NCBI GenBank assembly: GCA_964514975.1
Contig: CAZESS010000003.1
Coordinates: 1-64,000 of the forward strand
DNA from: an uncultured Thermoplasmatales archaeon
GTDB taxonomy: Archaea; Thermoplasmatota; E2; UBA202; DSCA01
DNA: 64,000 nt
Reading direction: 5' to 3'
Every line of letters starts with the position of its first letter. The first letter of the stretch is position 1. The notes under the pieces are model-generated. The model was not told the origin of the DNA. It saw only the letters and a list, made by a program, of their open reading frames with translations, and did no database searches. A program made the translations under genes and the position numbers. Below, one piece after another: positions 26,309 through 55,657 of this stretch.

Positions 26309-27976
26309 CTACTCCATCCCGGGGCATTCCCTTGCTACCCCGGTGGCGATGTTTTTGTCGCCGTAGGCGCTGCGATAGTGCTCGGCAAAATCATTGGCGA
26401 TGGCCTGGGCGCGCTCGTCGTAGGCCGCCTTGTCCTTCCAGGTGTTTTTCGGCCACAATAGGTCGTCGGGAACACCGGGGCAGCTTTTGGGTACCATGAC
26501 CTTGAAATAGGGATGCTTCCGGCATGGCACGTCCTCCAGGGTGCCGTCGAGCGCGGCGTCGACCATGCTGCGTGTGTAGTCGATGTCGATGCGGTGGCCC
26601 TCGCCATAGGGCCCGCCGGTCCAGCCGGTGTTGATGAGATACACGTTGGTGCCGTGCTGTTCCATCTTGTCACCGAGCATCTCCGCGTAGGTGTCGGGGT
26701 TGCGGGGCATGAACGGCTCGCCGAAAAACCGGGAGAATACGGATACGGGTTCGTCGATACCGGTTTCGGTGCCGGCGAGCTTGCTGGTATACCCCATCAG
26801 GAACCAGAGCATCGCCTGATGGCGGGTGAGCTTCGCAACGGGAGGCATCACGCCGTTTGCGTCCGCCGTCAGAAACAAAATCGTCGAGGGATGCCCCGCG
26901 GTTGATGAATGCTTGATGTTGGAGAGATAGGTGAGCGGGTAGGATGCCCGGGAGTTCTTGGTAAACCGGTCATCGTTGAAGTCGAAGGTGCCGTCGGGAT
27001 ACACCATGGCGTTTTCCACGATGGAGCCATGCCGGCGGTAGTCGTCGTGGTGCATCACCGCATCATAGATTTCGGGCTCCTTCCCGGGGTCGATGTCTAT
27101 CATCTTCGCGTAGCACCCGTTTTCAAAGTTGGCGACGCCGTCGTCGCTCCATCCGTGTTCGTCGTCGCCGAGCAACGCACGCGATGGGTCGGCGGACAGC
27201 GTGGTCTTGCCCGTGCCCGACAGCCCGAGCAGCAATGCCGCGTCACCAGCAGCGCCCTCGTTGGCGGAGCAGTGCAACGGCAAAATACCCTCGCCGGGCA
27301 GCAGGTAGTTCATCACGGTAAACATGAGTTTTTTGACGGAGCCCATGTAGGCGGAGCCGTAGACCAGGCCGATACGGTTGTCCATGTCCATCGCCACCAG
27401 CATGCCCGATGTGCGACCGTCCTCAAGCGTGCGGAGCTGCCCCTGGTAGCGCTCCCGCGGCAGCTTGTCGTAGGGCAGCGCGATGAACGTGAACGGCTGG
27501 TCAGCGAAGACGCTCTCGTCGATGTCCCCGGGCGTTGGGCGGAACATGTTGTCGGTGAACAGCGCCGTCAGCGCTCTATCCGTGATAGTGGTGACGGGCA
27601 GCGTCCAAGATGACTCGGCGCCGATGGCCCGGTCGGTGACATATACCTGTTCCTTGTCCTCCAGGGTTTGGAGGGCGTCGTGGAGCGCCATCTCGAATGT
27701 CTCGGGGTCGAGCGGGATGTTGTTGGGTGAATCCCAGTCGATGGTGTCCTGGCTCTCTGGCCGACGGACGATCATGGTGTCCTTGGGGCTGCGCCCGGTT
27801 GACTCGGGCGGCGTCCAGGTGGCCAGCGCGCCGCTCTCGCTTATGATCGCCTCGCGTTGGTCGACCGCGTCCTCGATGAGCTGCCGACGGGCGGCGTTGC
27901 GGTACACCTTGGCATGGCCGTCCAGCGTTGCATCCAGGCGGTCTCGCAGGTCATGCGGTGATACTTTTGTGGTCAT
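26309..27976 (-). CDS. pckA: Phosphoenolpyruvate carboxykinase (ATP)
   Basis: TGRSPKD, HCSAN, GLSGTGKTTLS, DDEHGW, NFENGCYAK and NTGWTGG motifs. Confidence 0.95.
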   Translation of the reverse strand: MTTKVSPHDLRDRLDATLDGHAKVYRNAARRQLIEDAVDQREAIISESGALATWTPPESTGRSPKDTMIVRRPESQDTIDWDSPNNIPLDPETFEMALHDALQTLEDKEQVYVTDRAIGAESSWTLPVTTITDRALTALFTDNMFRPTPGDIDESVFADQPFTFIALPYDKLPRERYQGQLRTLEDGRTSGMLVAMDMDNRIGLVYGSAYMGSVKKLMFTVMNYLLPGEGILPLHCSANEGAAGDAALLLGLSGTGKTTLSADPSRALLGDDEHGWSDDGVANFENGCYAKMIDIDPGKEPEIYDAVMHHDDYRRHGSIVENAMVYPDGTFDFNDDRFTKNSRASYPLTYLSNIKHSSTAGHPSTILFLTADANGVMPPVAKLTRHQAMLWFLMGYTSKLAGTETGIDEPVSVFSRFFGEPFMPRNPDTYAEMLGDKMEQHGTNVYLINTGWTGGPYGEGHRIDIDYTRSMVDAALDGTLEDVPCRKHPYFKVMVPKSCPGVPDDLLWPKNTWKDKAAYDERAQAIANDFAEHYRSAYGDKNIATGVARECPGME

Positions 27977-28004
27977 GTGAACACGACGGATGGGAATATG
28001 ATGT

Positions 28005-28043
28005 TTGTATAAAAACTTGTATAAAAAAAGGGAGAGAGGAGAG
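28005..28043 (-). promoter_or_regulatory. icd terminator abutting tandem TATA-like boxes of pckA
   Basis: TTGTATAAAAA occurs at 28005-28015 and 28017-28027; a minus-strand pyrimidine run follows the icd stop. Confidence 0.5.
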
Positions 28044-28046
28044 CTA

Positions 28047-29243
28047 TCATCGGTAGCTCTGCCACGCTTCTTGCAAATCCTCTCGCTGGATGGTGTCCAT
28101 CACGTAGTCGGCGAACTCGGCGCCGGTGGCCCCGTCGGAGCGGCCGGTGCACACGTGTTTTTTCTCGTACTGGCTGCAGATGTCGAGTGCCATGTCCAGC
28201 TTGCGAGCTTTTTCCTTGTATCCCAGATGGTTGAGCAGCATCGACGCGGCCTTCATGATGCTCGTGGGGTCGGCATACTGCGCCCGGTCCTCGTCGACCA
28301 TTCTGGGCGCGGAGCCGTGGATGGCCTCAAACATCGCGTATCGCTTTCCGATGTTGGCGCTGCCGGCGGTGCCGACGCCGCCCTGTATCTGCGCTGCCTC
28401 GTCGGTGAGGATGTCGCCGAACAGGTTGGGCATGACGATGACGCGGAACTGGCTTCGCCGGGCTGGGTCGATGAGCTTGGCGGCCATGATGTCCACGAAC
28501 CAGTCGTCCCAGTCGATGTCGGGGTATTCCCTGGCGATTTCCTCCGCGATGCTGAGGAACGTGCCGTCGGTGGTCTTGACCACGTTGGCCTTGGTAACGA
28601 CGGTGACGCGGTCGATGTCGTTTTTCTTTGCGTGCTCGAAGGCAAGGCGGATGATGCGCTCAGATCCCGGCGAGGTCGTCACGGCGAAGTCGAAGGCGAG
28701 GTCGTCGTCTGCCAGGGTGATGCCCTTGCGGCCCAGGGTGTAGGCGCCCTCGGTGTTCTCCCGGAAGAACACCCAGTCGATGTTTTTGGATGGTACCTTG
28801 ACGGGCCGGACGTTGGCGAACAGGTCGAGCTCGCGGCGCATGACCACGTTTGCGCTCTCGATGTTCGGCCACTTATCGCCTTTTTTCGGGGTCGTCGTCG
28901 GTCCCTTGAGCAGGACGTGACATTGCTTTATCTTTTCCATGACGTCGTCGGGGATGGCCTGCAATGCTTCCGCACGGTTTTCTATGGTCAGGCCTTCGAT
29001 GTTTCTGAACTCGATTTTGCCCTGTTCGACTTCGTCCTGCAACAGGAATCGGAGGACGCGCTCTGCCTCCTTACATATGTAGGGGCCGATGCCGTCGCCG
29101 CCCACGATGCCGATTTTTATGGGCGTGAGCTGGCCGTAGTCTATCCAGTCCTCCTCCGTGCGGAGGCGCTGCAGTCGCTCTATCTGTTCTTCGGCGATGG
29201 TGCCGAAGTGTTCTCGTGCCTGTTCTATATCTTTTTCATACAT
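28047..29243 (-). CDS. icd: Isocitrate dehydrogenase (IDH/IPMDH family)
   Basis: GDGIGP, KGPTTTP, SANVVMRR (isocitrate-type S-x-N), RENTEG, NLFGDILTD and HGSAP motifs; in an operon with aconitase. Confidence 0.85.
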   Translation of the reverse strand: MYEKDIEQAREHFGTIAEEQIERLQRLRTEEDWIDYGQLTPIKIGIVGGDGIGPYICKEAERVLRFLLQDEVEQGKIEFRNIEGLTIENRAEALQAIPDDVMEKIKQCHVLLKGPTTTPKKGDKWPNIESANVVMRRELDLFANVRPVKVPSKNIDWVFFRENTEGAYTLGRKGITLADDDLAFDFAVTTSPGSERIIRLAFEHAKKNDIDRVTVVTKANVVKTTDGTFLSIAEEIAREYPDIDWDDWFVDIMAAKLIDPARRSQFRVIVMPNLFGDILTDEAAQIQGGVGTAGSANIGKRYAMFEAIHGSAPRMVDEDRAQYADPTSIMKAASMLLNHLGYKEKARKLDMALDICSQYEKKHVCTGRSDGATGAEFADYVMDTIQREDLQEAWQSYR

Positions 29244-29267: not shown

Positions 29268-30821
29268 TTATGTCACGCGGGGCACCACGTCGATGATGGT
29301 GCCGTCGCGGTATTCCACCAGCGCCGCCAGGTCGTCGCCCCAGTCTGGTTCTTTTTGCTCTGTTATACCTGCACGGCTGTAGGCCAGGTTTTTGAGGTCT
29401 TCGATGTCCACCAGTGTGAGGTCTGTCTGCTTCAGCCTGTCGTGCAGGTCGTCCCTCGCGGGATTCACGGCGATGCCGTACTCCGTCACTACTGCATCGA
29501 CGGTCTCGCCGGGCGTGGTGACCGTGGTGACGTCGTCGACGACGATGGGCAGCCGGCCGCGCATCAACGGTGCCGTGATGATGGTCAGGGCGGCGCCGGC
29601 AGCCGTGTCCTGATGGCCGCCGATGGGATGGGCGAGAACGCCATTTGAAAAGGTGACGGTGTTGACGTTGAAGCTCGTGTCTACCTCGGTGGCGCCGAGC
29701 ACCACCACGTCCAGATTGTTGACCAGGCAGCCTTTGCCGTGCACATTGCTATAATGATCGATGCCCACGATGTGGTGGTCGTCGTCCTCCTGCAGCGACT
29801 GTATCGCGGCGGGATCAAACGCCTGCCCGGTCAGCAATTGTTTGACCCGTTTTTTGTGCAGGATGTCGACGATGTATTCCGTGGTGCCGCCCATGGCCCA
29901 TGAGGCAACGTGGTCCTCGTTTTCCAGCAGCTCGCCCAGAAACTTGGTGAACGCGAGCGATATACCACCGGCGCCCGCCTGGAACGATGAACCGTCGTAA
30001 ATGGCACCGGCTGTATGGGCAAGCTGAACCGCGTCGCGTGCAATCTTGAGACGGGTCGGCGAGCGGGTGATGCGCAACGTACCGCTCACGATGTGCTCGG
30101 GGTCGCCGATCCGGTCGACCATCGCCACCGCATCGACGTGCTGCTCGCTTATCTCAGCGGGCATACATGGATATTCGACGAGATTGTCGGTCACCACCAC
30201 GGCTTTTTCTCCATAGAGCGCGTCGGGCACGCTGTACTGGATGCAGCCGCAGGCGTTGGGGCCGAAGCGGCCGGTGCAGTTGCCCGCATAGTCGGATGAC
30301 GGAGCGCCGATGAATGCCACATCGACGTGGATGTCGCCGGCGGTCACGGCGCGGGCGCGTCCCCCGTGGCTGCGCACCCGGACGGGCTCGTCGAACACGC
30401 CATCTGAGACGGCCTCGCCGATTTTGCCGCGGTAGGAGCCGCCCTCTATGTAGCCCACGGTGCCGTCCCGGATGCTCCTGAGCAGCATATCCTCCTGGCA
30501 GGGAAATGTCGACGACGGCGCCAGCGTCAGGTTTTTCAGGCCGAGCTCGTGGGCTGCCTCGAGCACCAGGTTCATGACCCGGTCGCCGTTGCGGAAATGG
30601 TGATGGAACGAGATGGTCATGCCATCTTCCAGGTCGACCTGCTGCATCGCCTTTTTGACGGCCTTCACGGTCTTGTTCCGCCGGCCGGGCGAGGCCACGT
30701 AGCCGAGACGGGGCGCGGCTTTGCATCCCGACGGCGTATGGGCAAACGCGCCCTGGAAGGGCTGCAGCGTCTGGCCGCCGGCTTTTTCGGGGATATCTCG
30801 TCCAACTGCGTTTTCTGGCAT
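29268..30821 (-). CDS. citF: Citrate lyase alpha subunit / citrate CoA-transferase
   Basis: DGMTISFHHHFRNGD, RSHGGRARA, FQAGAGG, GGHQDTAAGA and EYRDGT motifs. Confidence 0.93.
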   Translation of the reverse strand: MPENAVGRDIPEKAGGQTLQPFQGAFAHTPSGCKAAPRLGYVASPGRRNKTVKAVKKAMQQVDLEDGMTISFHHHFRNGDRVMNLVLEAAHELGLKNLTLAPSSTFPCQEDMLLRSIRDGTVGYIEGGSYRGKIGEAVSDGVFDEPVRVRSHGGRARAVTAGDIHVDVAFIGAPSSDYAGNCTGRFGPNACGCIQYSVPDALYGEKAVVVTDNLVEYPCMPAEISEQHVDAVAMVDRIGDPEHIVSGTLRITRSPTRLKIARDAVQLAHTAGAIYDGSSFQAGAGGISLAFTKFLGELLENEDHVASWAMGGTTEYIVDILHKKRVKQLLTGQAFDPAAIQSLQEDDDHHIVGIDHYSNVHGKGCLVNNLDVVVLGATEVDTSFNVNTVTFSNGVLAHPIGGHQDTAAGAALTIITAPLMRGRLPIVVDDVTTVTTPGETVDAVVTEYGIAVNPARDDLHDRLKQTDLTLVDIEDLKNLAYSRAGITEQKEPDWGDDLAALVEYRDGTIIDVVPRVT

Positions 30822-30824: not shown

Positions 30825-31739
30825 TTACATCTCCTCCACGATGTCGGGAATCTTTTCTGCGTCTATCAGGCCGCCGAGCCGCGCTATCATGAGGGTGCGC
30901 TGTGCCCGCTCGACGACGGGCTTGTCGATCATTTTTCTGCCCAGGGAGGCGACGCCGCTTCCCCTGGCCCTGGCCTCCTCGATGGCCTGCATGACCTTTA
31001 GGGCGTGCTCGATTTCCTCCCGGGTGGGGTTGAAGGCTCGATGGATTGCGTCGACCTGGTTGGGATGGATGGCGGCTTTGCCGTCGAAGCCAAGCTGGCG
31101 CATCTTGACGGCCTGCCTGTGCAACCCCTCGAGGTCCTGCACGTCGCTGTAAACGGTGTCGAGCGCCTGTTTGCCGGCTGCCTTCGCTGCGGCGATGAGC
31201 CGCTGCCGGGGCCACGCAAGCTCTTCCTCGGTGCTGCTTTTTTCGCCGCCGACGTCGCGGGTGTAGTCCTCGCCGCCGAACGACAGGGCAACGATGCGGT
31301 CGCCGGACAGCGCGATGTCGTAGGCATGGATGATACCCCTGGCGCTTTCGATGAGCGGCACGACCGATGTTTGGGTGTCAAGGTCGTGCTCTGCCTCCAC
31401 CTGGTCGAGCAGCGAGGCGAGCTGGACAACCTGCTGCGGCGTCTCCGCCTTGGGGAGGTAAATACCGTCGACGGCGCCGGTAGCAACGACTGTTTTGACA
31501 TCATCTTCGCCCCAGGGGGTGTCGAGCGCGTTGACCCTGACGGTTATCTCTGACTCGCCGAGGTCGAGGTCGCGGAGCGCCTCGGTAACCAGCCAGCGAG
31601 CCGCCACCTTCTGGTCGGGGGCGACGCTGTCCTCGAGGTCGAGCGTGATGACGTCGGCGCCGAACAACGCACACGTGGACAGCATCCGGGGAACGTTTCC
31701 TGGCACGTATATCCGGCTGCGCCGGAGCCTGTATGTCAT
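30825..31739 (-). CDS. citE: Citrate lyase beta subunit / citryl-CoA lyase
   Basis: LRRS..YVPG, DLEDSV, VRVN, GGEDY, GFDGK..IHP and MIDKP motifs. Confidence 0.93.
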   Translation of the reverse strand: MTYRLRRSRIYVPGNVPRMLSTCALFGADVITLDLEDSVAPDQKVAARWLVTEALRDLDLGESEITVRVNALDTPWGEDDVKTVVATGAVDGIYLPKAETPQQVVQLASLLDQVEAEHDLDTQTSVVPLIESARGIIHAYDIALSGDRIVALSFGGEDYTRDVGGEKSSTEEELAWPRQRLIAAAKAAGKQALDTVYSDVQDLEGLHRQAVKMRQLGFDGKAAIHPNQVDAIHRAFNPTREEIEHALKVMQAIEEARARGSGVASLGRKMIDKPVVERAQRTLMIARLGGLIDAEKIPDIVEEM

Positions 31740-32014
31740 TGTTCCTCCCTCGCCTCTAACACGGCGGCCTTGGTTCGAGCGCGGATGGTGAAATCATAGG
31801 CCCAGTTGTCCTGCACCGTGACGGCTGCATCCTGGACGTCCATCTCGTCGAGCGCTGCCCGGACGGCTGCCTCGATTTCCTCGCCGAACTGCCGGGCGCC
31901 CTTGCCCGTGACCTCGACCGAGATGCCGCTGCCCGCCGGTGCGGGCGATAGCGTGACGGCGGCGTCTTCTTTGCTGTCGGTGCCGACCATGACCTCTCTT
32001 TTTATTTCGGTCAT
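31736..32014 (-). CDS. citD: Citrate lyase gamma (acyl carrier) subunit, atypical attachment motif
   Basis: 92 aa with QFGEEI and AYDFTIRAR; sits before citE. Motif is GTDSKED instead of canonical GTLES(S/G)D. Confidence 0.85.
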   Translation of the reverse strand: MTEIKREVMVGTDSKEDAAVTLSPAPAGSGISVEVTGKGARQFGEEIEAAVRAALDEMDVQDAAVTVQDNWAYDFTIRARTKAAVLEAREEQ

Positions 32015-32023: not shown

Positions 32024-33940
32024 TCATTCTTTTTTGTGCTTTATCCAGGGGAGCAGGCCGCCGGTGAGCATGACGTCCCGTTCCTCCTGGCCCAGGTCGT
32101 GTTGCAGCTCGTATGTTTCGTCCTTGCTGTGGTTTGTGAGCGTGATGTCTCCGGTGAACCGGCCGATGTGCAGCTCGAGTTCGTCACCCTGGTCGATACG
32201 GTCGTAACCGTCTGGCTCGGCGAACGTCAGGGGGACGATACCGAAGTTGATGAGGTTGGCGCGGTGGATGCGGGCAAAGGATTTCGCGATGACGGCTTTG
32301 ACGCCCAGGTATTTTGGTGCGATGGCGGCATGCTCGCGGCTGGAGCCCTGCCCGTAGTTTTCGCCGCCGATGATGAAGCCGCCGTCCTGTGCCGTGGCGC
32401 GCTCGTAGAAATCTGGGTCCATGCCGGAGAAGACATATTTGGATATCTCAGGGATGTTGCTCCTGAGCGGCAGGATTTTTGCGCCGGCGGGCATGATGTG
32501 GTCGGTGGTGATGTTGTCGCCGACCTTGATGAGCACGTCTCCCTCCAGCGTCTGCGGCAGCGGCGGAAAGTCGGGCAATGGCTGGATGTTGGGACCGCGC
32601 TGCACTTCAACGTGTGACGCTTCCTCGGGCGGCAGCGGCGGGATGATGAGGTTGTCGTTGATGATAAAATGGTCGGGCATCTCGATGACCGGCTGCTCGC
32701 CCATGCTCCGGGGGTCGGTCAGCTCGCCCTGGATGGCCGTCGCGGCTGCGACCTCGGGGCTGACGAGGAAGATGTCAGCGTCGGCGGTGCCGCTCCGTCC
32801 TTCGAAGTTCCGGTTGTATGTGCGCACCGTCGCCGACGCGCTCGGGGGCGCACCGCCCATGCCGATGCAGGGGCCGCAGGCATTTTCGATGATGCGCGCA
32901 CCCGCGTCGACCAGATGAGTGTATTCGCCGCTCTGCACCAGATGCTCGACGACCTGACGGGAGCCGGGGTTGACAAGCAGCGCGAGGTTCGCTGCAACGG
33001 TGTTATCCTTCAAAATCTGCGCGGCCATTTTCATGTCCCGCAGCGATGAGTTGGTGCAGGAGCCAATGGCGACCTGCTCCACCTCCATGCCCTCAACTTC
33101 TTTGACGGGTTTGACGTTGCCGGGGCTGTGCGGCAGGGCGATGAGCGGCTCGAGCTCGCTGAGATTGATTTCGATGACCTTGTCGTACTCTGCATTTTCG
33201 TCTGCCTGCAACGGCTGCCATTCGTCGAGGCGGTCCTGCGCCCTGAACCATTGCTTCGTTATCTCATCGCTGGGGAAGATGCTCGTCGTAGCGCCTGTCT
33301 CGGTGCCCATGTTGGTGATCGTCGCGCGCTCCGGAACGCTCAGCGTCTGCACGCCGGGACCATAGTATTCGAAGACCCTGCCGACGCCGCCCTTGACGTC
33401 GACGCGGCGCAGCAGCTCCAGGATGACGTCCTTTGCGGACACCCAGTCGGGGAGCTCGCCGGTGAGCCTGACGCCGACGACCTCGGGGCATTTCAGGGTG
33501 AACGGTTCACCTGCCATCGCTGCGGCGACGTTCAACCCGCCGGCGCCGATGGCCAGCGAGCCGACGCCGCCCGCCGTCGGAGTGTGGCTGTCGCTGCCCA
33601 GCAATGTTTTGCCGGGCTGCGCGAATCGCTCGAGATGAAGCTGATGGCAGATGCCGTTGCCCGGCCTGGAGAAATACAGGCCGTAGCGCTGCGCTATAGA
33701 CTGGAGGTAGCGGTGGTCGTCGGCGTTGCGGAAGTCGGTCTGCAGCGTGTTGTGGTCGACGTAGCTGACTGATCGCTCGGTTTGCACGCGGTCGACGCCC
33801 ATTGCCTCGAATTCGAGGTATGCCATGGTGCCCGTCGCGTCCTGGGTCAGCGTTTGGTCGATGGTGATGGCGATATCGTCGCCCGTGTTCAGCTCTCCAT
33901 CCACGAAATGTTCCCTCAATATTTTGCGTGTCAGGTTCAT
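32024..33940 (-). CDS. acn: Aconitate hydratase (short ~640-aa type)
   Basis: QDATG, DHN, GICHQ, DSHT, GSCTN, CGPCIG, NRNF, TTDHI.PAG and GSSREHAA motifs. Confidence 0.92.
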   Translation of the reverse strand: MNLTRKILREHFVDGELNTGDDIAITIDQTLTQDATGTMAYLEFEAMGVDRVQTERSVSYVDHNTLQTDFRNADDHRYLQSIAQRYGLYFSRPGNGICHQLHLERFAQPGKTLLGSDSHTPTAGGVGSLAIGAGGLNVAAAMAGEPFTLKCPEVVGVRLTGELPDWVSAKDVILELLRRVDVKGGVGRVFEYYGPGVQTLSVPERATITNMGTETGATTSIFPSDEITKQWFRAQDRLDEWQPLQADENAEYDKVIEINLSELEPLIALPHSPGNVKPVKEVEGMEVEQVAIGSCTNSSLRDMKMAAQILKDNTVAANLALLVNPGSRQVVEHLVQSGEYTHLVDAGARIIENACGPCIGMGGAPPSASATVRTYNRNFEGRSGTADADIFLVSPEVAAATAIQGELTDPRSMGEQPVIEMPDHFIINDNLIIPPLPPEEASHVEVQRGPNIQPLPDFPPLPQTLEGDVLIKVGDNITTDHIMPAGAKILPLRSNIPEISKYVFSGMDPDFYERATAQDGGFIIGGENYGQGSSREHAAIAPKYLGVKAVIAKSFARIHRANLINFGIVPLTFAEPDGYDRIDQGDELELHIGRFTGDITLTNHSKDETYELQHDLGQEERDVMLTGGLLPWIKHKKE

Positions 33941-33962: not shown

Positions 33963-34057
33963 CATATAAAAAGTTTTTTATCAAATAATAAAAAAAACTG
34001 TAAATAATAATATTTTGTTAAAAAAATACAAAATATATTTTACAATTTAACAAAAAA
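33963..34057. promoter_or_regulatory. AT-rich promoter/operator of the acn-citDEF-icd operon
   Basis: Minus-strand TATA at 33963-33972; inverted repeats ATATTTTGT-N9-ACAAAATAT (34010-34036) and TTTTGTTAAA-N23-TTTAACAAAA (34013-34055). Confidence 0.6.
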
Positions 34058-34305
34058 TGTCCGTCAATCAACGCATGGAGCGTCAACCGGCCATCGATGG
34101 CCGCACTGCTCACACTGCAGATACAGATGCTGCTCCGGTACCATGCCGTTCGTCGACCAGGGAACACGCGCCACGACAGCCAGCTCGTCGCTGCCGCATC
34201 GCGGACAGCCCGCTCGCCGGCCCATACCTCATACCCTGCGACGATAACAACCGCGCGCACGATGCGAGGGCAAAACGTTTAACCACGGCGGCGCATTACC
34301 CGGCG

Positions 34306-35325: not shown

Positions 35326-35402
35326 GGACCAGCAGCACGGAGGATGCATAAAAACGTTGTGCGGGCGAACCATTTAAGAATAGATGGCACATCAGCATAT
35401 CC

Positions 35403-40524: not shown

Positions 40525-40574
40525 ACCTTTGACATGAGAGCAACACGTTTCCCAATCGCACCCGCATGAATACC

Positions 40575-48356: not shown

Positions 48357-50009
48357 ATGAGCGAAGGCTACCCCGAGTATATGAAAAAATCTATCGAAAA
48401 GGTCGAGGCGACCCGCGCGCAGCGCGTCGAGGAGACCTATGAGCGGATGAACCTGGATGAGGCGGACGAGGTGCTCAACAACTATCATCCCGACTATCGC
48501 CCCGAGGGCAAGCGGGAGATACCCGTGGGCCCGAGCAAGGGCGAAAAAGCGCCGATGGAGTTCGTGGAGCAGCTCCTGGCCCGGGGGCTCGTCTCGCCGG
48601 AGGACATCGACCTCGGCACCATCGACTACGACGTCGATATCCTGATTATCGGCGGCGGCGGGGCCGGCACCGTCGCAGCATTATGGGCCGTCCGTGAGGG
48701 CATCACGCCCGAAAATATTCTCATTTCGACGAAGCTCCGCCATGGCGATGCGAACAGCATGATGGCGCAGGGCGGCATCCAGGCCGCCGACAAGGAGGAC
48801 GACTCGCCCGTCAAGCATTATCTCGACGCCATCGGCGGTGGGCATTTCACCAACAAACCGGAGCTCGTCAAAGCGCTGACCATGGACGCCCCCGAAATCA
48901 TCCGGTGGCACGAGAAGCTCGGCGTCATGTACGACCGGGAAAAAGACGGCGACTTCGTCGAGCTGCCCGGCGGCGGCACCTCCCGCTTCCGGCTGCATGC
49001 GGCCGGCGACTACACCGGTATGGAGCTGATGCGGGTCATCCGTGACGAAGCACGCAACATGGACATCCCGGTGCTCGAGTTCACGCCGGCGATCGAGCTG
49101 CTGAAGGACGACAACGGCAACGTGGCCGGGGCGCTGCTCATGAACCTGGAAACCAATGAATACTACGTGGTCCGGGCAAAGTCGACCATCATGGCGACCG
49201 GCGGCTTCGGACGATTGCACATCCAGTCGTATCCGACGACCAATCATTACGGGGCGACGGCGGACGGCCTCATCATGGGCTACCGCGCCGGCGTACCCCT
49301 GCGGGACATGGACTCGGTGCAGTATCATCCCACCGGCGCCGCATACCCGGAGCAAATCGTCGGGCTGCTGGTGACCGAAAAGGTCAGGAGTCTGGGAGCC
49401 CAGCCGGTGAACCGCGATGGGGAGCTCTTCGTCAATCCGCTGGAGCCCCGCGACGTCGAAGCCGCCTCGATCATCCGGGAATGCTACGGCCGGGACAACG
49501 GCGTGGAGACGCTGACCGGCATGAAGGGCGTCTGGCTGGACTCGCCGCTCATCGAGGAGAAAAAAGGCGAGGGTACAATCGAAAAACGGCTGCCCGCCAT
49601 GGTCAGGCAGTACCAGCGGTTCGGCATCGACATCACCGAGCAGCCCATCCTCGTGTTTCCGACGCTGCACTACCAGAACGGCGGGCTGGTCATCAATCCC
49701 GATGGCTCGACGCCCGTCAAAGGCCTCTACGCCGGCGGCGAGGTCAGCGGCGGCGTCCACGGCAAAAACCGGCTGATGGGTAACTCGTTGCTCGACTACA
49801 ACGTCTTCGGCAGGCGGGCGGGTGTCGCCGCGGCGCGGCATGCCAAAAAAGCGTCCGTCGGCACGCTCACGCTTGACCACATCACCACATATGAAAAACA
49901 GCTTCGCGAGGCGGGTGTCGACATCGAGCGGAGGGCGCCGCTGCTGCTGCCCGAATACCGCGGCAAAAAAGTGCTGGAGCGGCACCTCGACGTCGAGGTC
50001 ACGCTGTAG
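48357..50009 (+). CDS. Soluble fumarate reductase flavoprotein (TfrA/FrdA-like)
   Basis: GGGGAG, NSMMAQGG, QYHPT, TEKVR, PRD, HYQNGG and HGKNRLMGNSL catalytic set. Confidence 0.82.
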   Translation: MSEGYPEYMKKSIEKVEATRAQRVEETYERMNLDEADEVLNNYHPDYRPEGKREIPVGPSKGEKAPMEFVEQLLARGLVSPEDIDLGTIDYDVDILIIGGGGAGTVAALWAVREGITPENILISTKLRHGDANSMMAQGGIQAADKEDDSPVKHYLDAIGGGHFTNKPELVKALTMDAPEIIRWHEKLGVMYDREKDGDFVELPGGGTSRFRLHAAGDYTGMELMRVIRDEARNMDIPVLEFTPAIELLKDDNGNVAGALLMNLETNEYYVVRAKSTIMATGGFGRLHIQSYPTTNHYGATADGLIMGYRAGVPLRDMDSVQYHPTGAAYPEQIVGLLVTEKVRSLGAQPVNRDGELFVNPLEPRDVEAASIIRECYGRDNGVETLTGMKGVWLDSPLIEEKKGEGTIEKRLPAMVRQYQRFGIDITEQPILVFPTLHYQNGGLVINPDGSTPVKGLYAGGEVSGGVHGKNRLMGNSLLDYNVFGRRAGVAAARHAKKASVGTLTLDHITTYEKQLREAGVDIERRAPLLLPEYRGKKVLERHLDVEVTL

Positions 50010-50020: not shown

Positions 50021-50236
50021 ATGATAGAAGTAAACGAGACATACTGCAAGGGCTGCAACCTCTGCATCGAGTTCTGCCCCAGAGATGCGCTGGAGCCAGC
50101 CGAGGAAATCAACGAAAAAGGCGTGCATCCACCCGTCGAGGTGGAGGGCAGATGCAACAACTGCCGGCTCTGCGAGCAGATATGCCCCGACTTCGCCATC
50201 GTCATCATAGAGGACGAGGAGGAAAACGATGAATGA
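50021..50236 (+). CDS. korD: 2-oxoacid:ferredoxin oxidoreductase delta (ferredoxin) subunit
   Basis: CKGCNLCIEFCP and CNNCRLCEQICPDFAI motifs. Confidence 0.88.
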   Translation: MIEVNETYCKGCNLCIEFCPRDALEPAEEINEKGVHPPVEVEGRCNNCRLCEQICPDFAIVIIEDEEENDE

Positions 50237-51383
50237 AGATTTCAAGCGAGCGAAAAAGGTCATCGGGTCATCCAAGCAGTTCATACATGGCGACACGGCC
50301 GTGTCATACGGCGCGTTGCTGGCCGGCTGCCGGTTTTTCGGCGGCTACCCCATCACACCTGCGTCGGAAATCGCGGAGCAGATGTCACGGCTGCTGCCCA
50401 GGGTGGGAGGCACCTACATCCAGATGGAGGACGAGCTGGCGAGCATCGCCGCCGTCATCGGCTCATCATGGACAGGCGCCAAAGCCATGACCGCCACCTC
50501 GGGCCCCGGCTTCTCGCTGATGCAGGAAAACCTGGGCTTCGCGGCCATGTCAGAGACACCATTGGTGCTGGCCAACGTGCAGCGCTCCGGCCCCTCGACG
50601 GGGCAGCCGACGCTGGGTGCGCAGGGAGACATGATGCAGGCCCGGTACGGCAGCCACGGCGACTACCATCCCATCGTGCTGTCCCCGAACACCATTCAAG
50701 AAACATTGGAGCTGACCATCCGGTCGTTCAACCTGGCGGAGGAATACCGCTGTCCCGTCTTCCTGATGATATGCGCCGACCTCGGCCACATGCGGGAGAT
50801 GGTCGAGATACCGCAGCAGGTCGACCTCTTCGAGCGCAAAAAGCCGAAGGTACCGCGCGATGAATACGTGCCCTTCGGCGAAGGCACCTATGGCAAAAAA
50901 AAGGTGCCCGAGATGGCGACCTTCGGCACCGGCTACCATACCTATGTAACGGGGCTAACCCACGACGAGATGGGCTTCCCGGCCACCGACGACCAGGAGG
51001 ACCACGATCGGTTGATACGGCGGCAGATAGAAAAAATCACCGACGACAGGGAAGCACTGACAGACATCGAGATGCGGAACATCGACGACGCCGACGTCGC
51101 CATCGTATCATACGGCATCGCCAGCCGGAGCGCGCTGGAGGCGATGCGGAAGGCCCGCGAGCAGGGCAAAAAGGTCGGCTATTTCAGGCTCAGGACCATC
51201 TGGCCGTTTCCCAGCCACGCCATCGAGAAGCTGTCCGGGCAGGTTGACCGGATCGTGGTCGCGGAGATGAACCTCGGCCAGCTGTACCACAAGGTAAACG
51301 AGTATGCCAGCTGCCCGGTAACGCTGGCCAGCAAAATCGGCGGGGAGATCCATACCCCGAACGAAATCCTCGCGGAGGTATAA
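50229..51383 (+). CDS. korA: 2-oxoglutarate:ferredoxin oxidoreductase alpha subunit
   Basis: YPITPASE, QMEDE, TSGPG.SLMQE and QRSGPSTG.PT motifs. Confidence 0.88.
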   Translation: MNEDFKRAKKVIGSSKQFIHGDTAVSYGALLAGCRFFGGYPITPASEIAEQMSRLLPRVGGTYIQMEDELASIAAVIGSSWTGAKAMTATSGPGFSLMQENLGFAAMSETPLVLANVQRSGPSTGQPTLGAQGDMMQARYGSHGDYHPIVLSPNTIQETLELTIRSFNLAEEYRCPVFLMICADLGHMREMVEIPQQVDLFERKKPKVPRDEYVPFGEGTYGKKKVPEMATFGTGYHTYVTGLTHDEMGFPATDDQEDHDRLIRRQIEKITDDREALTDIEMRNIDDADVAIVSYGIASRSALEAMRKAREQGKKVGYFRLRTIWPFPSHAIEKLSGQVDRIVVAEMNLGQLYHKVNEYASCPVTLASKIGGEIHTPNEILAEV

Positions 51384-51385: not shown

Positions 51386-52252
51386 ATGGAACAGGATAGC
51401 GTGGACGTGATAGACGGCAAAAAAATACAGGAAAAATATCTGCGCGAAGAGATGATGCCCACCATCTTCTGCGACGGCTGCGGCATCGGCAATGTGCTGG
51501 ACTACACCCTGTGGGCGCTCGAGCGGGAAAACATCGACATGGACAACACCGTGTTCCTGTCCGGTATCGGCTGCTCATCCCGGCTGCCCGGCTACGTCGA
51601 CGTCGACGCACTGCACACCACGCACGGCCGGGCGCTGGCCTTCGCCACCGGGGTCAAGCTGACCAACCCCGACCTGCACGTGGTGGTGTTCACCGGTGAC
51701 GGCGACGGCATCGGCATCGGCGGCAACCATTTCATCCACGCCTGCCGGCGCAACCTTGATGTTACCGTGGTCTGCGTCAACAACTTCATCTACGGTATGA
51801 CCGGCGGGCAGGTGGCCCCGACGACGCCCGAGTCCAGGAAGGCGACGACGGCGCCCTATGGCAACATCGAGCCGCCGTTCGACATGAGCAAGATGGCGAT
51901 AGCGTCGGGCGCATCCTATGTCGCCCGGTGGCCGATAAACAAGCCCTCGATGCCCATCAACTCCATCCGTGAGGGGCTCAGGAATCAAGGCTTCAGCTTC
52001 ATAGAGATGCTGTCGCCCTGCCCGACCGCCTTCGGACGGCGGAACAAGTTCCGGAAGATAGAAGAGATGTGGGGATGGTACGCCGAGCACACCATGCTCA
52101 TCGAGGACTACGAAATGATACAGAAATACGGCAGCGAGGAGGAAAAAGCCCGGCTGCGGGACATCATCACCATGGGCGTCCTCCACCGGGAGGACAAGCT
52201 CCCGTTGAACCAGCGCATCAAGCGGCTCATCGCGGAGGTGATGGAAAAATGA
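51386..52252 (+). CDS. korB: 2-oxoglutarate:ferredoxin oxidoreductase beta (TPP) subunit
   Basis: CDGCG, GIGCS, HTTHGRA and GDGD...NN.IYGMTGGQ motifs. Confidence 0.88.
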   Translation: MEQDSVDVIDGKKIQEKYLREEMMPTIFCDGCGIGNVLDYTLWALERENIDMDNTVFLSGIGCSSRLPGYVDVDALHTTHGRALAFATGVKLTNPDLHVVVFTGDGDGIGIGGNHFIHACRRNLDVTVVCVNNFIYGMTGGQVAPTTPESRKATTAPYGNIEPPFDMSKMAIASGASYVARWPINKPSMPINSIREGLRNQGFSFIEMLSPCPTAFGRRNKFRKIEEMWGWYAEHTMLIEDYEMIQKYGSEEEKARLRDIITMGVLHREDKLPLNQRIKRLIAEVMEK

Positions 52253-52779
52253 GAATCAACCTTCGACTGTGCGGCAAGGGCGGCCAGGGCATCATGCTCT
52301 CCGGCTACATCCTGGGCAAGGCCGCCAGCGTGTTCCACGACTACAACGCGGTGCAGACCCAGAGCTACGGCCCCGAGGCGAGGGGCGGCGCCGCACGCTC
52401 CGAGGTCATCATCGCCGACGAGGAAATCGGGTACTGCGGCATCGAAGCCGCGGATGGCATGATGGTGCTGTCGCAGGAGGCGTACACCAAGTACAGCGAC
52501 GACCTCAAGGAGGACTGCATCGTGGTCGCCGATCCCGACCTGGTGAAAAGCATCGAGCACGGCAACGTCGTCCCCGTGCCGGGCACCCGCATCGCCGAGG
52601 ATCTCGGCAACAAGATCGTGGCGAACATCGTCATGCTCGGCGCGTTCAACCAGGCCGGCGCGTTCGTGCCCCAGAAGGCGCTGGAGCAGGCGGTGGAGGA
52701 CAGCGTGCCATCGCGCTTCACCGAGCTCAACCTCAAGGCGTTGAACGAAGGCATCCGGCGGGCGAAGGAACAGGAATAG
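52249..52779 (+). CDS. korC: 2-oxoacid:ferredoxin oxidoreductase gamma subunit
   Basis: G.GGQG, QSYGPEARGG and NIVMLGA motifs. Confidence 0.88.
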   Translation: MRINLRLCGKGGQGIMLSGYILGKAASVFHDYNAVQTQSYGPEARGGAARSEVIIADEEIGYCGIEAADGMMVLSQEAYTKYSDDLKEDCIVVADPDLVKSIEHGNVVPVPGTRIAEDLGNKIVANIVMLGAFNQAGAFVPQKALEQAVEDSVPSRFTELNLKALNEGIRRAKEQE

Positions 52780-52889: not shown

Positions 52890-53093
52890 CTACCATTCCT
52901 GGCCGCTTCGCTGCCGCATGTCTTCGCCGGGAGCGTCATCGTCGTCGTAGGGATTGTTGTTGTTTTCCTCATAGTGGTCGTCTTCGCCGTTGGTGTTGTG
53001 GTTGTGGTCCTGGGAGTTCGCCACCACCGGGGCAACGATTGCCGCAGCGAGGATAACGCAGGCCACCGCTGCCACCAAAATGCGGGTTTTCAT
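52890..53093 (-). CDS. Small secreted Asn/Asp/His-rich peptide
   Basis: Signal peptide (MKTR + hydrophobic helix) followed by NSQDHNHNTNGEDDHYEENNNNPYDDDD; pyrimidine terminator at 52868-52889. Confidence 0.6.
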   Translation of the reverse strand: MKTRILVAAVACVILAAAIVAPVVANSQDHNHNTNGEDDHYEENNNNPYDDDDAPGEDMRQRSGQEW

Positions 53094-53199
53094 GCCATGC
53101 TATCCCGGGGAATGTATCAAGCCCTTGCCGCCCTTACAGCACACCCCTGCCAGTGCCATATCTATTTATACAGTTGTTTCATCCAGATGTGAGGATATC

Positions 53200-54552
53200 A
53201 TGTCCGAGAAAAAGGTCACCAAGGAGGAATTGTTGGAGAAAGCGAAGGAGCCCGCCAAGAAAGCCATGAAATGGCATCCATTCTATCGGGGAAAAATCGA
53301 GGTGGCTCCCAAGGTGCAGGTGAAAAGCTTCGACGACTTCGGCGTCTGGTACACGCCCGGAGTCGCGGAGCCATGCCGGGACATCCACCAGAATCCGGAC
53401 AAGGTCTACGAGCATACCAACAAGTGGAACAACGTGGCGGTGGTCAGCGACGGCAGCAGGGTGCTCGGCCTGGGCGACATCGGCCCCATGGCGGGCATGC
53501 CCGTCATGGAGGGCAAGGGCCTGCTGTTCAAGTATCTGGGCGGCGTCGACGCGTTCCCCATCTGCCTGGATGCGCATGACCCGGAGGACATCGTGCAGGC
53601 GACCAAGTGGATAGCGCCGTCGTTCGGCGGCATCAACCTGGAGGACATCTCGAAGCCCAAGTGCTTTTACGTGCTGGAGCGGCTGCGGGAGGAGCTCGAC
53701 ATCCCGGTATGGCATGACGACCAGCAGGGCACCGCCGCTATCACGCTGGCCGGCATCATCAACGGGCTCAAGGTCGTCGGCAAAAAGCTCGAGGATGTGG
53801 ACATCGGCCTGGTGGGCAGCGGCGCCGCCAACCTGTGCCTCGCCCGCACATTGCTCAAAGCCGGCGTGCCCGCCAAACATCTCTGGCTGGCCGACTCGAC
53901 CGGTCTGCTCCACCCGGGGCGGGATGACCTCAGCCCGGAAAAAGACCCGGAGAAATACAAGTTCGCCCAGAAAACCAACCTCGAGCAAAAGGAGGGTGGA
54001 CTCCCCGAGCTCATCGCCGGCAAGGACGTCGTCGTCGCCGCGTCGAAACCAGGCCCGGACACCATCAAAAAGGAATGGCTTCGGCGCATGAACGACGACG
54101 CCATTTTGTTCGCCGAGGCCAACCCCATCCCCGAGATATGGCCCTGGGAAGCGAAAGAGGCAGGCGTCCGCATCGTGGGCACCGGCCGCTCGGATTTCCC
54201 CAACCAGGTCAACAACTCCATCGGCTTTCCCGGTATCTTCCGCGGCGCCCTCGACGTCCGCGCCAAAACCATATCCGACGAGATGCACATCGAGGCAGCC
54301 TATGCAATCGCCGAGGTCGCCGAGGAGGCAGGGCTCGACGAGGAACATCTCGTGCCGACGATGGAGAACACCGAGGTCTACATCCGGCAGGCCGTCCGCG
54401 TCGCCCTCAAGGCCATCGAGCAGGGCCTCGCCCGGGTCAAGCTCAGCGAGCAGGAGCTCCGAGAAAAAGCCGAAGCGATCATCATGTCAAGCCGCAAGAA
54501 AACGCAGCACATGATGGAGGCTGGCTACATCGAGGACGCCCCGCCGCTGTGA
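53200..54552 (+). CDS. Malic enzyme (NAD(P)-dependent, decarboxylating)
   Basis: YTPGVA, VLGLGDIG, MEGK, INLEDI, HDDQQGTA and TGRSDFPNQVNN motifs. Confidence 0.93.
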   Translation: MSEKKVTKEELLEKAKEPAKKAMKWHPFYRGKIEVAPKVQVKSFDDFGVWYTPGVAEPCRDIHQNPDKVYEHTNKWNNVAVVSDGSRVLGLGDIGPMAGMPVMEGKGLLFKYLGGVDAFPICLDAHDPEDIVQATKWIAPSFGGINLEDISKPKCFYVLERLREELDIPVWHDDQQGTAAITLAGIINGLKVVGKKLEDVDIGLVGSGAANLCLARTLLKAGVPAKHLWLADSTGLLHPGRDDLSPEKDPEKYKFAQKTNLEQKEGGLPELIAGKDVVVAASKPGPDTIKKEWLRRMNDDAILFAEANPIPEIWPWEAKEAGVRIVGTGRSDFPNQVNNSIGFPGIFRGALDVRAKTISDEMHIEAAYAIAEVAEEAGLDEEHLVPTMENTEVYIRQAVRVALKAIEQGLARVKLSEQELREKAEAIIMSSRKKTQHMMEAGYIEDAPPL

Positions 54553-54559
54553 GGCAACG

Positions 54560-55657
54560 ATGAAGCTCCAGGAATACCAGGCAGCCGATATCTTCCGGCA
54601 GGCAGGCATCCCGGTCGCCGAGGGCTACCTCGTCACCGCTCCCGAGGAGATACGCGACGTCACCCGGCCCGTGGTTTTGAAGGCGCAGGTTCGCGTCGGA
54701 AAACGCGGCAAACACGGCGGCATCATGTTCGCCGACAGCCGGGAAGAGGCGATGAACAAGGCAGCAAAGCTGTTCGACATGCAGATACAGGGGCTCGACG
54801 TCAACGAGGTCTTGGTGGCGGAAAAAGCAGACGTGCAGCATGAGTACTACGTCGGCATGGTCATGGACCGCGAAACAAAGCGGCCGGTGCTCATTATGAC
54901 CAGCGAAGGCGGCATGGACATCGAGGAGGTGGCAGCAGAGCATTCCGACCGCATCGCAAAATATCCCGTCGACCCGGTCATGGGATTGCGCCGCTACGAG
55001 GCCATGTACCTCGCCGAAAAAATCGGGTTGCAGGGCAACAAGATGAAACAGATGGCAGGCATCGCCGTGAAACTTTACCAGGCATTCGACGCATACGACG
55101 GCGAGCTCGCCGAAATCAATCCCCTGGTCGCGACGCCCGACGGGCTGCTGGCCATCGACGCCGTGTTCAACATCGACGACAACGCTCTCTACCGCCAGGA
55201 CTTCGACAAAGAGAAAAGCCCGCTTGTCACCGAGCGGGAGAAAAAGGCCAGCGAGCATGGCCTCGCCTATGTCGACCTCGACGGCGAGGTTGCCATCATC
55301 GGCTGCGGCGCCGGCCTGGTCATGGCGACGCTGGACGCCGTGGCAGAATACGGCGGCAGCCCGGCCTGTTTCCTCGACCTGGGCGGCGGCGCCACCGCTG
55401 AAGACACGAGGCATGCGCTGGACATCGTCCAGATGAAGGACTCCGTTGCCACCATTTACCTGAACATCTTCGGCGGTATCACGCAATGCGACAAGATAGC
55501 GGAGGGCATCATCGAGGCCGCGCCGCACAAGCCGACAGTGATACGGATGCTGGGCACCAACGAGGAACAGGGCAAGGAGATGCTCCGCCAGGAAGGCTAC
55601 GAGGTCGTCGACGATATGACCGAGGGTGCCAGGAAGGCCGTGGAGCTCCTCGGATAG
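54560..55657 (+). CDS. sucC: Succinyl-CoA synthetase beta subunit
   Basis: MKLQEYQA, KAQV..GKRGK.GG, EGGMDIE, EINPL, GAGLVMATLD and NIFGGIT motifs. Confidence 0.9.
   Translation: MKLQEYQAADIFRQAGIPVAEGYLVTAPEEIRDVTRPVVLKAQVRVGKRGKHGGIMFADSREEAMNKAAKLFDMQIQGLDVNEVLVAEKADVQHEYYVGMVMDRETKRPVLIMTSEGGMDIEEVAAEHSDRIAKYPVDPVMGLRRYEAMYLAEKIGLQGNKMKQMAGIAVKLYQAFDAYDGELAEINPLVATPDGLLAIDAVFNIDDNALYRQDFDKEKSPLVTEREKKASEHGLAYVDLDGEVAIIGCGAGLVMATLDAVAEYGGSPACFLDLGGGATAEDTRHALDIVQMKDSVATIYLNIFGGITQCDKIAEGIIEAAPHKPTVIRMLGTNEEQGKEMLRQEGYEVVDDMTEGARKAVELLG

Follow-up and report, generated by a model that had tools for sequence, protein, structure and literature searches.

A putative H2-linked reductive TCA gene island with a candidate bifurcating fumarate reductase in an uncultured Thermoplasmatales archaeon

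Pseudoclostridium thermosuccinogenes has a 'succinate operon' with a Flx-Hdr-linked fumarate reductase (Hdr, heterodisulfide reductase), for which bifurcation to ferredoxin (Fd) was assumed (PMC7282089), and in the Mnemosynellales thiol:fumarate reductase (Tfr) is syntenic with an Hdr-like complex (PMC9635834). Other Thermoplasmatota have been proposed to convert glutamate to acetyl-CoA by a partial reductive tricarboxylic acid (rTCA) cycle (PMC12220078). In E. coli, the citrate lyase CitDEF was hypothesised to close an engineered rTCA cycle, with a cleavage step of +4.4 kJ/mol (PMC9967407). The stretch of DNA analysed (the window) comprises positions 1-64000 of contig C3 (CAZESS010000003.1) of an uncultured Thermoplasmatales archaeon, whose genome (G000; 1.96 Mb, 66 contigs) is rated 98.9% complete. 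Positions 26309-55657 of the window join a hydrogenase-Hdr-fumarate reductase-KOR operon (KOR, 2-oxoglutarate:ferredoxin oxidoreductase) to a citrate lyase operon, and the interval reads best as a reductive-direction TCA gene island of two modules.

A reductive, H2-linked TCA route is supported at gene level. The fuller interpretation preferred here, held with middling confidence, is that the island would be used mixotrophically and that its fumarate reductase bifurcates electrons: H2 would drive the interconversion of C4 acids, 2-oxoglutarate/glutamate and acetate, and some CO2 would be assimilated, rather than supporting obligate autotrophy. Published precedents exist for a fumarate reductase that is linked to Hdr and driven by NADH, and for a partial rTCA cycle starting from glutamate. 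A literature search found neither an Mvh-Hdr-Frd-Kor operon described as a bifurcating H2:fumarate reductase nor CitDEF replacing ATP-citrate lyase (ACL) in archaea, although the supplementary tables of papers on metagenome-assembled genomes (MAGs), which it did not cover, may list such genes.

The hydrogenase-Hdr-fumarate reductase-KOR module

Module 1 consists of hdrA-mvhDGA-hdrCB-frdBA-korDABG, with fumAB, maeA-sucC and sucD alongside. Gene identities are from Pfam and NCBIfam profile matches, with the NCBIfam equivalog cut-offs as typing threshold.

35403-36272, plus strand: sucD, succinyl-CoA synthetase alpha subunit (NF004230, 431.5 bits, above the 336 cut-off)
38832-39416, minus strand: class I Fe-S fumarate hydratase, beta (PF05683, 144.8 bits)
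39413-40387, minus strand: class I Fe-S fumarate hydratase, alpha (PF05681, 331.2 bits)
40388-40565 (178 nt), no strand: divergent fumA/hdrA promoter region, AT-rich, with TATA-like TTTATAT boxes on both sides
40566-43574, plus strand: hdrA (NCBIfam HdrA2, 1048.7 bits, below the 1100 cut-off)
43574-43996, plus strand: mvhD, [2Fe-2S] adaptor subunit (PF02662, 179 bits)
43993-44958, plus strand: mvhG, [NiFe] hydrogenase small subunit (PF01058; top NCBIfam match VhuG, 214 bits, below cut-off)
44951-46408, plus strand: mvhA, group-3c-like [NiFe] hydrogenase large subunit (PF00374; top NCBIfam match VhuA, 405 bits, cut-off 800)
46405-46800, plus strand: hdrC-like gene, two [4Fe-4S] clusters (Fer4_8, Fer4_17; TIGR03290, 69 bits, cut-off 160)
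46802-47653, plus strand: hdrB-like gene, two CCG domains (PF02754, two stretches)
47655-48353, plus strand: frdB, iron-sulfur subunit (Fer2_4 and Fer4 families)
48357-50009, plus strand: frdA, TfrA-like fumarate reductase flavoprotein (PF00890, 238.5 bits, the sole strong family)
50021-50236, plus strand: korD (two CxxCxxCxxxCP motifs and orthologues at the same position)
50229-51383, plus strand: korA (PRK08659, 544.5 bits, above the 411 cut-off)
51386-52252, plus strand: korB (top match 2-oxoglutarate:ferredoxin oxidoreductase beta subunit, 270 bits, below 364)
52249-52779, plus strand: korG (NCBIfam PRK08537, 194.5 bits)
53200-54552, plus strand: maeA, malic enzyme (PF00390 and PF03949; NF009501, 326 bits, below cut-off)
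54560-55657, plus strand: sucC, succinyl-CoA synthetase beta subunit (TIGR01016, 403.6 bits, above the 375.55 cut-off)

By homology korDABG encodes KOR, and the clustered maeA, fumAB, frdBA, sucCD and kor genes cover five steps, from pyruvate to 2-oxoglutarate. All genes that the original prediction had named in the interval are present by Pfam or NCBIfam, korD being recognised by its motifs and orthologues.

The twelve genes from hdrA to korG are spaced by at most 17 nt or overlap, after correction of the starts of mvhD (43574), hdrB (46802) and frdB (47655); the mvhD start ATG overlaps the hdrA stop. The sole oligo-T run along this unit, at 52789, follows korG (promoter boxes and T-runs were read by eye). 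fumAB is transcribed divergently from hdrA, and maeA-sucC has a 420-nt gap with a TATA-like box upstream and strong T-runs at 55659-55683 downstream.

The most fitting interpretation of the 12-gene unit is a fumarate reductase that depends on H2, bifurcates electrons and also supplies KOR with reduced ferredoxin. In the proposed soluble complex MvhAG would take electrons from H2 and pass them through MvhD to the flavin of HdrA, where they would bifurcate. The downhill path would run over HdrC, HdrB and FrdB to FrdA and reduce fumarate to succinate, and the uphill path would reduce ferredoxin. From standard potentials the reaction 2 H2 + fumarate + Fd(ox) -> succinate + Fd(red) comes to about -70 kJ/mol. 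The one reduced ferredoxin gained per succinate would equal what KOR needs to carboxylate succinyl-CoA, supplied by SucCD, to 2-oxoglutarate. The methanogen arrangement of Mvh-Hdr, Tfr and KOR would thereby be short-circuited, with no need for the heterodisulfide of coenzymes M and B (CoM, CoB). The order hdrCB then frdBA indicates that the high-potential acceptor is most likely fumarate, not CoM-S-S-CoB as in methanogens. No second hdrA, hdrB, hdrC, mvhD, frdA or frdB is found in G000 (tblastn, E<=1e-5), so that the single Hdr of the genome is the one wired to FrdBA.

The gene order is conserved, as the original prediction expected. A pattern scan for FrdA matched 290 stretches, of which 275 encode a relative; the best 80 of these (61-92% identity) were compared, and the synteny counts take only loci with enough flank for each gene. 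The core hdrCB-frdB-frdA is kept in 63/69 loci (frdB in 69/69, hdrB and hdrC in 63/69 each), and hdrCB is not directly upstream in the other six (L065, L080, L082, L090, L091 and L092). hdrA is present in 46/53, mvhD in 44/55, mvhG and mvhA in 36/55 each, and mvhDGA together in 35/55. korA lies somewhere in the locus in 53/80, and directly downstream of frdA in 28/60; all four kor genes follow frdA directly in 17/60. The loci with the module are labelled Thermoplasmatota, Methanofastidiosum, Theionarchaea, Bathyarchaeia, Heimdall- and Njordarchaeota and Mnemosynella, together with bacterial loci labelled Bipolaricaulota/Acetothermia and a few others. The Bipolaricaulota-like order is korG-hdrA-mvhDGA-hdrCB-frdBA-korDAB-maeA-fumAB-sucC-sucD.

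All six MvhAGD-HdrABC subunit types are encoded, including the flavin and Fe-S domains of HdrA (Pfam, NCBIfam and alignment to the HdrA in the PDB). The NiFe ligand motifs RICGVC and DPCLAC of MvhA are intact. HdrB has all ten cysteines of both CCG motifs, which are invariant among 17 aligned sequences, and it scores alike as HdrB (141.9 bits; cut-off 345) and as SdhE, the CCG subunit of type-E fumarate reductase (141 bits). FrdB has a [2Fe-2S] site and two four-cysteine [4Fe-4S] sites, and the twelve cysteines are invariant in 22 sequences. FrdB, HdrC and HdrB match successive stretches of the fused TfrB model. A complex prediction from the HdrB (17-row) and FrdB (22-row) alignments scored 0.26 where the mark was 0.32, and it carries no weight either way.

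HdrA has 1002 residues and two modules in a tandem or permuted arrangement. The first is an FAD domain with an inserted ferredoxin domain; the second has the N-terminal domain, an FAD domain lacking the insert, and the C-terminal ferredoxin domain. Residues 8-371, 441-601 and 853-999 match residues 154-517, 5-165 and 511-655 of the PDB HdrA, respectively, and a further match to the HdrA FAD domain, skipping the insert, covers residues 574-860. The protein thus resembles an HdrA dimer fused into one asymmetric chain. Among the best 80 of the 275 loci this form is limited to the 17 closest ones, which are halophile-labelled (L013-L034); the others have an hdrA of about 650 codons in the same place.

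FrdA has TfrA as its top NCBIfam family, with 343 bits for a cut-off of 718, and covers model positions 6-426 of 546. It lacks the PF02910 C-terminal domain, about 120 C-terminal residues of the TfrA model being missing, and it has an N-terminal extension of about 90 residues that is family-wide, since all but a few of the best 80 of 275 loci match from residues 1-5 onward. In an alignment with E. coli SdhA, FrdA keeps the histidine of HPTG, the Thr-Glu pair, the catalytic arginine and the second histidine and arginine, and an asparagine stands in place of the histidine that binds FAD covalently. L-aspartate oxidase was considered as another identity for FrdA and rejected: the TfrA score of 343 bits exceeds that of NadB (265 bits), and the operon context also speaks against it. 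The genome does have nadA (L101 8884-9795), yet the FrdA query matched only itself in G000, with no further FAD_binding_2/NadB-like gene.

The TfrA-like FrdA and the invariant CCG motifs, which bind disulfide-reducing clusters, would also suit a thiol shuttle. FrdAB with HdrBC would then act as a thiol:fumarate reductase and HdrA-Mvh would re-reduce the disulfide, with some other dithiol, a small molecule or a protein, replacing CoM/CoB; such a reading is in print for the Hdr-syntenic Tfr of Mnemosynellales (PMC9635834). It is nevertheless decidedly unlikely here, since each operon has one HdrBC, and the same site would both make and break the disulfide. In addition, the module is present in bacteria, and McrA and ComA were not found in G000, the ComA result being a weak test because its control also misses Methanosarcina.

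The bifurcating complex could instead serve mainly for energy conservation, as a soluble fumarate respiration with succinate as end product. Fumarate would come from aspartate, malate or phosphoenolpyruvate (PEP) carboxylated by PckA, and ferredoxin would be re-oxidised by an ion-pumping membrane group-4 hydrogenase. A group-4 [NiFe] hydrogenase large subunit, with motifs RICGIC and DPCMSC, is indeed encoded on contig C8, and the window has an H+-pyrophosphatase. The scheme is analogous to that assumed for P. thermosuccinogenes (PMC7282089), and it suits relatives that have module 1 but no citrate cleavage. However, korDABG shares a transcription unit with frdA, and in many lineages the kor, suc and mae genes cluster together, which suggests that carbon flows on via succinyl-CoA and is not excreted as succinate. 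A succinate exporter was not identified, and this alternative is considered unlikely.

A putative citrate lyase in the ATP-citrate lyase slot

Module 2 is the operon acn-citDEF-icd-pckA on the minus strand.

26309-27976, minus strand: pckA, ATP-dependent PEP carboxykinase (PF01293, 553.7 bits; same position in G001-G003)
28047-29243, minus strand: icd-like gene of the Iso_dh family (PF00180, 231.7 bits)
29268-30821, minus strand: citF, citrate lyase alpha subunit/citrate CoA-transferase (PF04223, 506.3 bits)
30825-31739, minus strand: citE, citryl-thioester lyase beta subunit (PF03328, 194.5 bits, and PF15617)
31736-32014, minus strand: citD, ACP-like gamma subunit (PF06857, 72.7 bits)
32024-33940, minus strand: acn, aconitate hydratase (PF00330 and PF00694; PRK07229, 978.8 bits, above the 612 cut-off)

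In the preferred interpretation this module would take 2-oxoglutarate through isocitrate and citrate to oxaloacetate and a C2 unit, and pckA could drain oxaloacetate to PEP. The genes acn-citD-citE-citF-icd, of which acn is the first, are as compact as the 12-gene unit. pckA follows icd after a 70-nt spacer that contains T-runs and its own TATA-like box. Since each unit of the island has separate TATA-like boxes and T-runs, the co-regulation that the original prediction proposed can only be presumed. A motif search over six promoter regions gave as sole shared item an A-rich 12-mer, in the acn and fum/hdr regions, which is too simple a sequence to be taken as a regulatory signal. The acn promoter (34014-34030) and the fumA/hdrA promoter (40452-40464) have GTTAAAAAAATA in common, in opposite orientation, with TTGTTAAA nearby. 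Because both are of low complexity, the sharing of GTTAAAAAAATA and TTGTTAAA may be due to chance.

The operon was compared in 41 genomes, namely G000 and 40 relatives, five of the 41 belonging to the window genus. AclB is found in 13/41 genomes and in 0/5 of the genus, and all 13 have acn-aclB-aclA. icd follows aclA in nine of the 13 (G005, G007, G008, G009, G010, G014, G015, G021 and G028); the contig ends after aclA in G011 and G032, and no icd follows it in G039 and G040. For G010 and G007 the ACL identity was confirmed at domain level. G000-G003 and G016 have acn-citD-citE-citF-icd instead, and G007 carries both enzymes as citDEF-aclB-aclA-icd. This gene order shows that the predicted CitDEF has taken the position of ATP-citrate lyase within the operon, which supports a citrate-cleaving role in the direction from 2-oxoglutarate to citrate, and it backs the use of CitDEF as the cleavage step in the original prediction. 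The icd-like gene has NADP-dependent isocitrate dehydrogenase as its top NCBIfam match (264 bits, cut-off 509) and reaches no equivalog cut-off; its orthologues, at 67-75% identity, are the genes directly after aclA in the nine ACL-bearing relatives.

CitF, CitE and CitD belong to PF04223, PF03328 and PF06857, which occur together in one operon, and the window CitF is 42-44% identical to annotated bacterial citF products. The bacterial CitD motif G[TS]LESSD (two sequences) faces GTD[SN]KED, GTEERED or GTDNKRD in five archaeal sequences. The serine of the ESSD motif (Ser14), which we take to be the attachment site of the prosthetic group, is replaced by lysine or arginine in all five archaeal sequences aligned. 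CitC, CitX and CitG were not found in G000, and CitX and CitG are each found in 0/41 genomes; CitF-family genes are present in 39/41. The absence of the serine and of these proteins suggests an enzyme that probably takes free CoA thioesters as substrates, CitF acting as the CoA-transferase and CitE as the lyase of citryl-CoA. It should yield acetate, or else acetyl-CoA by way of a CoA-transferase, and use no ATP directly.

CitDEF might also cleave imported citrate in a fermentation, with acn and icd merely supplying 2-oxoglutarate. Bacterial citDEF operons with oxaloacetate decarboxylase (OAD) and CitMHS look similar, and oadAB lies beside the operon in G007. The citrate transporter that this route needs may be represented by one CitMHS-family permease gene on contig C5, so that the transporter the original prediction pointed to has a candidate; the family is unspecific, however, with matches in 13/14 control genomes, and the gene lies outside the cluster. 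No OAD beta subunit is found in G000, the ACL that CitDEF replaces is itself no citrate-fermentation enzyme, and the missing CitC, CitX and CitG also count against this explanation, which is very improbable.

Other CitF- and CitD-related genes occur in these genomes. G000 has two further stand-alone citF genes (C19:36164-37693 and C25:18786-20321; L098-L100 set), the C19 type being present in nearly all 41 genomes though CitX and CitG are found in none, and a fused citD-citE at C1:87591-88688 beside an HD-domain protein and an aldehyde dehydrogenase. Together with the Fe-S hydratase, these additional CitF and CitDE paralogues might make up a glutamate route of the methylaspartate/citramalate-lyase type. 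In L122 (G016:C24:40000-52000), G028:C109 and G039:C16 a citF paralogue adjoins a citrate-synthase-like gene of about 347 codons. The L122-type pair is flanked by aconitase-like and Iso_dh-like paralogues and could be a CoA-transferase plus citryl-CoA-lyase-type pair. OAD alpha and beta genes follow the ACL/icd operon in L120 (G007:C23; 621-3696) and L130 (G008:C21; 497-3470), at the place that pckA has in G000.

Pathway completeness and direction of flux

The absence of citrate synthase and ACL, which the original prediction reported for the window, extends to the whole genome: G000 has neither the citrate synthase/ACL/CCL (citryl-CoA lyase) domain PF00285 nor the AclB citrate-binding domain PF16114. 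No 2-oxoglutarate dehydrogenase or succinate dehydrogenase membrane anchor appears among the scanned open reading frames (ORFs) of the interval, no family search having been aimed at either. Of the genes that the prediction looked for elsewhere, malate dehydrogenase (MDH) has one counterpart, an MDH/LDH-like gene that may encode either MDH or lactate dehydrogenase (LDH). With it, both modules would close an rTCA-type cycle. For pyruvate:ferredoxin oxidoreductase there are four further 2-oxoacid:ferredoxin oxidoreductase (POR_N) loci as candidates. Of the Wood-Ljungdahl pathway, acetyl-CoA synthase CdhC was looked for and is absent from G000. PpsA, PPDK, glutamate dehydrogenase (GDH) and three genes resembling ADP-forming acetyl-CoA synthetase (ACD) are present.

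All steps of a full autotrophic rTCA cycle would be encoded, when the window genes are taken together with the MDH/LDH-like gene, the four oxidoreductase loci, PpsA, PPDK and the ACD-like genes. H2 would be the sole reductant of such a cycle, and CitDEF with ACD would replace ACL. The lack of both CdhC and citrate synthase is consistent with it, and an ACL-type rTCA cycle has been predicted for related Thermoplasmatota (PMC11287216; PMC11216029). Nonetheless, no energy-yielding pathway of H2 oxidation was identified. By its stoichiometry the cycle consumes ATP and yields none. The genome is also rich in secreted peptidases and has GDH and ACD, the modules are separate among close relatives, and relatives pair the operon with OAD, so that full autotrophy is improbable. 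Equally doubtful is the related idea that the island is a complete, CO2-fixing rTCA cycle on H2, free of quinone and ACL, with a prosthetic-group-free CitDEF as a fourth natural cleavage route. Succinyl-CoA would then possibly be the CoA donor, with release of acetyl-CoA, and Mvh-HdrA-HdrBC-FrdAB would form one soluble supercomplex.

The opposite direction would be an oxidative, H2-evolving route, in which glutamate-derived 2-oxoglutarate goes to pyruvate via KOR, SucCD, succinate dehydrogenase (FrdAB), fumarase and malic enzyme. Hdr-Mvh would run in reverse and confurcate the electrons of succinate and of KOR-reduced ferredoxin into H2. The cluster has malic enzyme, not MDH, and so exactly the enzymes from 2-oxoglutarate to pyruvate. 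The match of one ferredoxin per succinate is also valid in reverse, GDH is present, and such a route was proposed for the Culexarchaeia (PMC9723716). On the other side stands a calculated standard energy demand of about +70 kJ/mol; the route would become feasible only once H2 falls to about 1 Pa or lower, and alkaline pH makes the balance worse. The route would also leave ACL/CitDEF, acn and icd beside the module unexplained, and its probability is judged low.

Several observations weigh against the preferred reading of a mixotrophic, reductive island. The direction of flux cannot be read from sequence, and the genes also fit the oxidation of 2-oxoglutarate to pyruvate. By estimate the bifurcating reaction nears equilibrium around 0.1-10 Pa H2, so that the reverse, H2-evolving direction is possible at low H2. 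HdrA, HdrB, HdrC, MvhA and FrdA stay below their NCBIfam equivalog cut-offs, and the assignments of icd and of the MDH/LDH-like gene are tentative. Several loci (L060, L066, G010) keep hdrA-mvhD-hdrCB-frdBA but miss mvhGA, which indicates that H2 is not a universal donor. A full-length FrdA orthologue is found in 24 genomes of the 41-genome set, G000 included; four of the 24 have ACL (G010, G021, G028 and G032), three have a full-length window-type citF (G000-G002; a partial one is in G033), and 16/24 have neither, so that module 1 does not require the full cycle. Within the genus the modules separate, since G003 (92% complete) has the cit operon without a FrdA match and G004 (88%) has neither. 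G005, G007 and G008 carry Na+-oxaloacetate decarboxylase genes after the ACL/Cit operon, an arrangement that looks catabolic and resembles citrate or glutamate fermentation. These archaea were read as fermentative heterotrophs in PMC11287216.

The rTCA-like interpretation of the original prediction thus stands in part. Synteny, the swap in the ACL slot and the partner enzymes speak for it; the separate modules, the 16 genomes lacking a cleavage enzyme and the OAD linkage do not. In G010, which belongs to another genus, the acn operon lies 2 kb from korDABG-hdrA-mvhD-hdrCB-frdBA, which places the two modules side by side in a second genus.

The window has about 60% G+C. By FrdA comparison its nearest public relatives are MAGs of the Thermoplasmatota, many with hypersaline labels, and the host is taken to be a salt-loving, peptide-degrading anaerobe. 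The remaining genes of the cluster interval are as follows.

34057-34878: C39 peptidase gene
34885-35373, minus strand: [NiFe]-hydrogenase maturation endopeptidase (PF01750; TIGR00072, 105.2 bits, above the 47.45 cut-off)
36291-38720: S8 peptidase gene (subtilase)

HycI-like genes are present in several related loci too. The C39 and S8 peptidase genes split the cluster and belong to other transcription units. The C-terminal stretch of the S8 subtilase, about 170 residues, recurs with 35-84% identity at the ends of ORFs at more than 20 places in G000 and is probably a common domain for surface anchoring or secretion. A 67-aa ORF between korG and maeA (52890-53093, minus strand) begins like a signal peptide and ends in a very acidic tail rich in Asn and Asp. 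The flanks encode phosphoglycerate kinase (4389-5558), TrkH (7645-9111), H+-pyrophosphatase (13102-15099), a PAS/GAF histidine kinase with response regulator (15242-18536) and pst-phoU (21810-26308), a phosphate uptake cluster that directly abuts pckA. Elsewhere in G000 a second, more divergent sucCD operon, L101 (G000:C10:59485-61394), lies beside nadA and a class-V aminotransferase; its SucC is below the succinyl-CoA synthetase cut-offs and may therefore activate another acid.

Comparison with described systems

If the proposed function is true, the unit would be the first H2-driven, fumarate-dependent electron bifurcation. It would also give a role to the group 3c hydrogenase/Hdr of many non-methanogenic archaea and Bipolaricaulota, a role called 'not clear' for close relatives in PMC11287216, and would supply low-potential ferredoxin for 2-oxoglutarate synthesis without energy-converting hydrogenases at that step. 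Replacement of ACL in place by a CitDEF free of ACP chemistry matters for metagenomic scoring of rTCA cycles, where ACL or CCL serve as markers, and for the list of citrate-cleaving routes.

The methanogen MvhAGD-HdrABC (5odc, 8rvu) has the same six subunit types and the same order of electron carriers, and the window HdrA matches the structures at E about 1e-204 to 1e-209. The locus differs in having no methanogenesis and no McrA in its genome, a rearranged HdrA fusion of 1002 residues, and subunits below the equivalog cut-offs. Methanogens run the same reductive branch with Mvh-Hdr, Tfr and KOR separate, whereas here the three are in one gene cluster.

FrdA has TfrA as its best-scoring family, a likeness to Methanothermobacter TfrAB (Heim et al. 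1998, as summarised in PMC11223495), and the cluster set of FrdB is that described for TfrB in PMC11223495. Unlike TfrAB, the TfrB counterpart is split into three genes (frdB, hdrC and hdrB), FrdA differs at both ends as described above, and the enzyme is genetically joined to a hydrogenase/HdrA module and would not depend on free CoM-SH and CoB-SH. The P. thermosuccinogenes operon, compared from its description in PMC7282089, likewise brings together fumarate hydratase, an Hdr complex and a soluble fumarate reductase. Its donor is the NADH dehydrogenase FlxABCD, whereas the genes between hdrA and frdA here are all assigned to MvhD, MvhG, MvhA, HdrC and HdrB, so that the donor is a [NiFe] hydrogenase and there is no FlxABCD; the operon here also continues straight into korDABG.

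The annotated bacterial CitDEF operons L128 and L129 resemble the window operon in their three subunit families and in the order D-E-F. The archaeal operon differs from them in that CitC, CitX and CitG are missing, the ESSD serine is lysine or arginine, and the genes stand in a TCA operon, not beside a citrate carrier. Among the features by which rTCA cycles are recognised, fumarate reductase and a ferredoxin-dependent KOR are present by homology; in place of the described cleavage systems, which are ACL, citryl-CoA synthetase with citryl-CoA lyase (CCS/CCL) and reversible citrate synthase, the locus has CitDEF in the ACL slot. The ACL-type (partial) rTCA of Thermoplasmatota, with true AclA and AclB occurring among the relatives G005-G040, shares the same acn-X-icd frame and partner enzymes (PMC11287216; PMC12220078), and in the window genus and G016 X is CitDEF, not AclBA.

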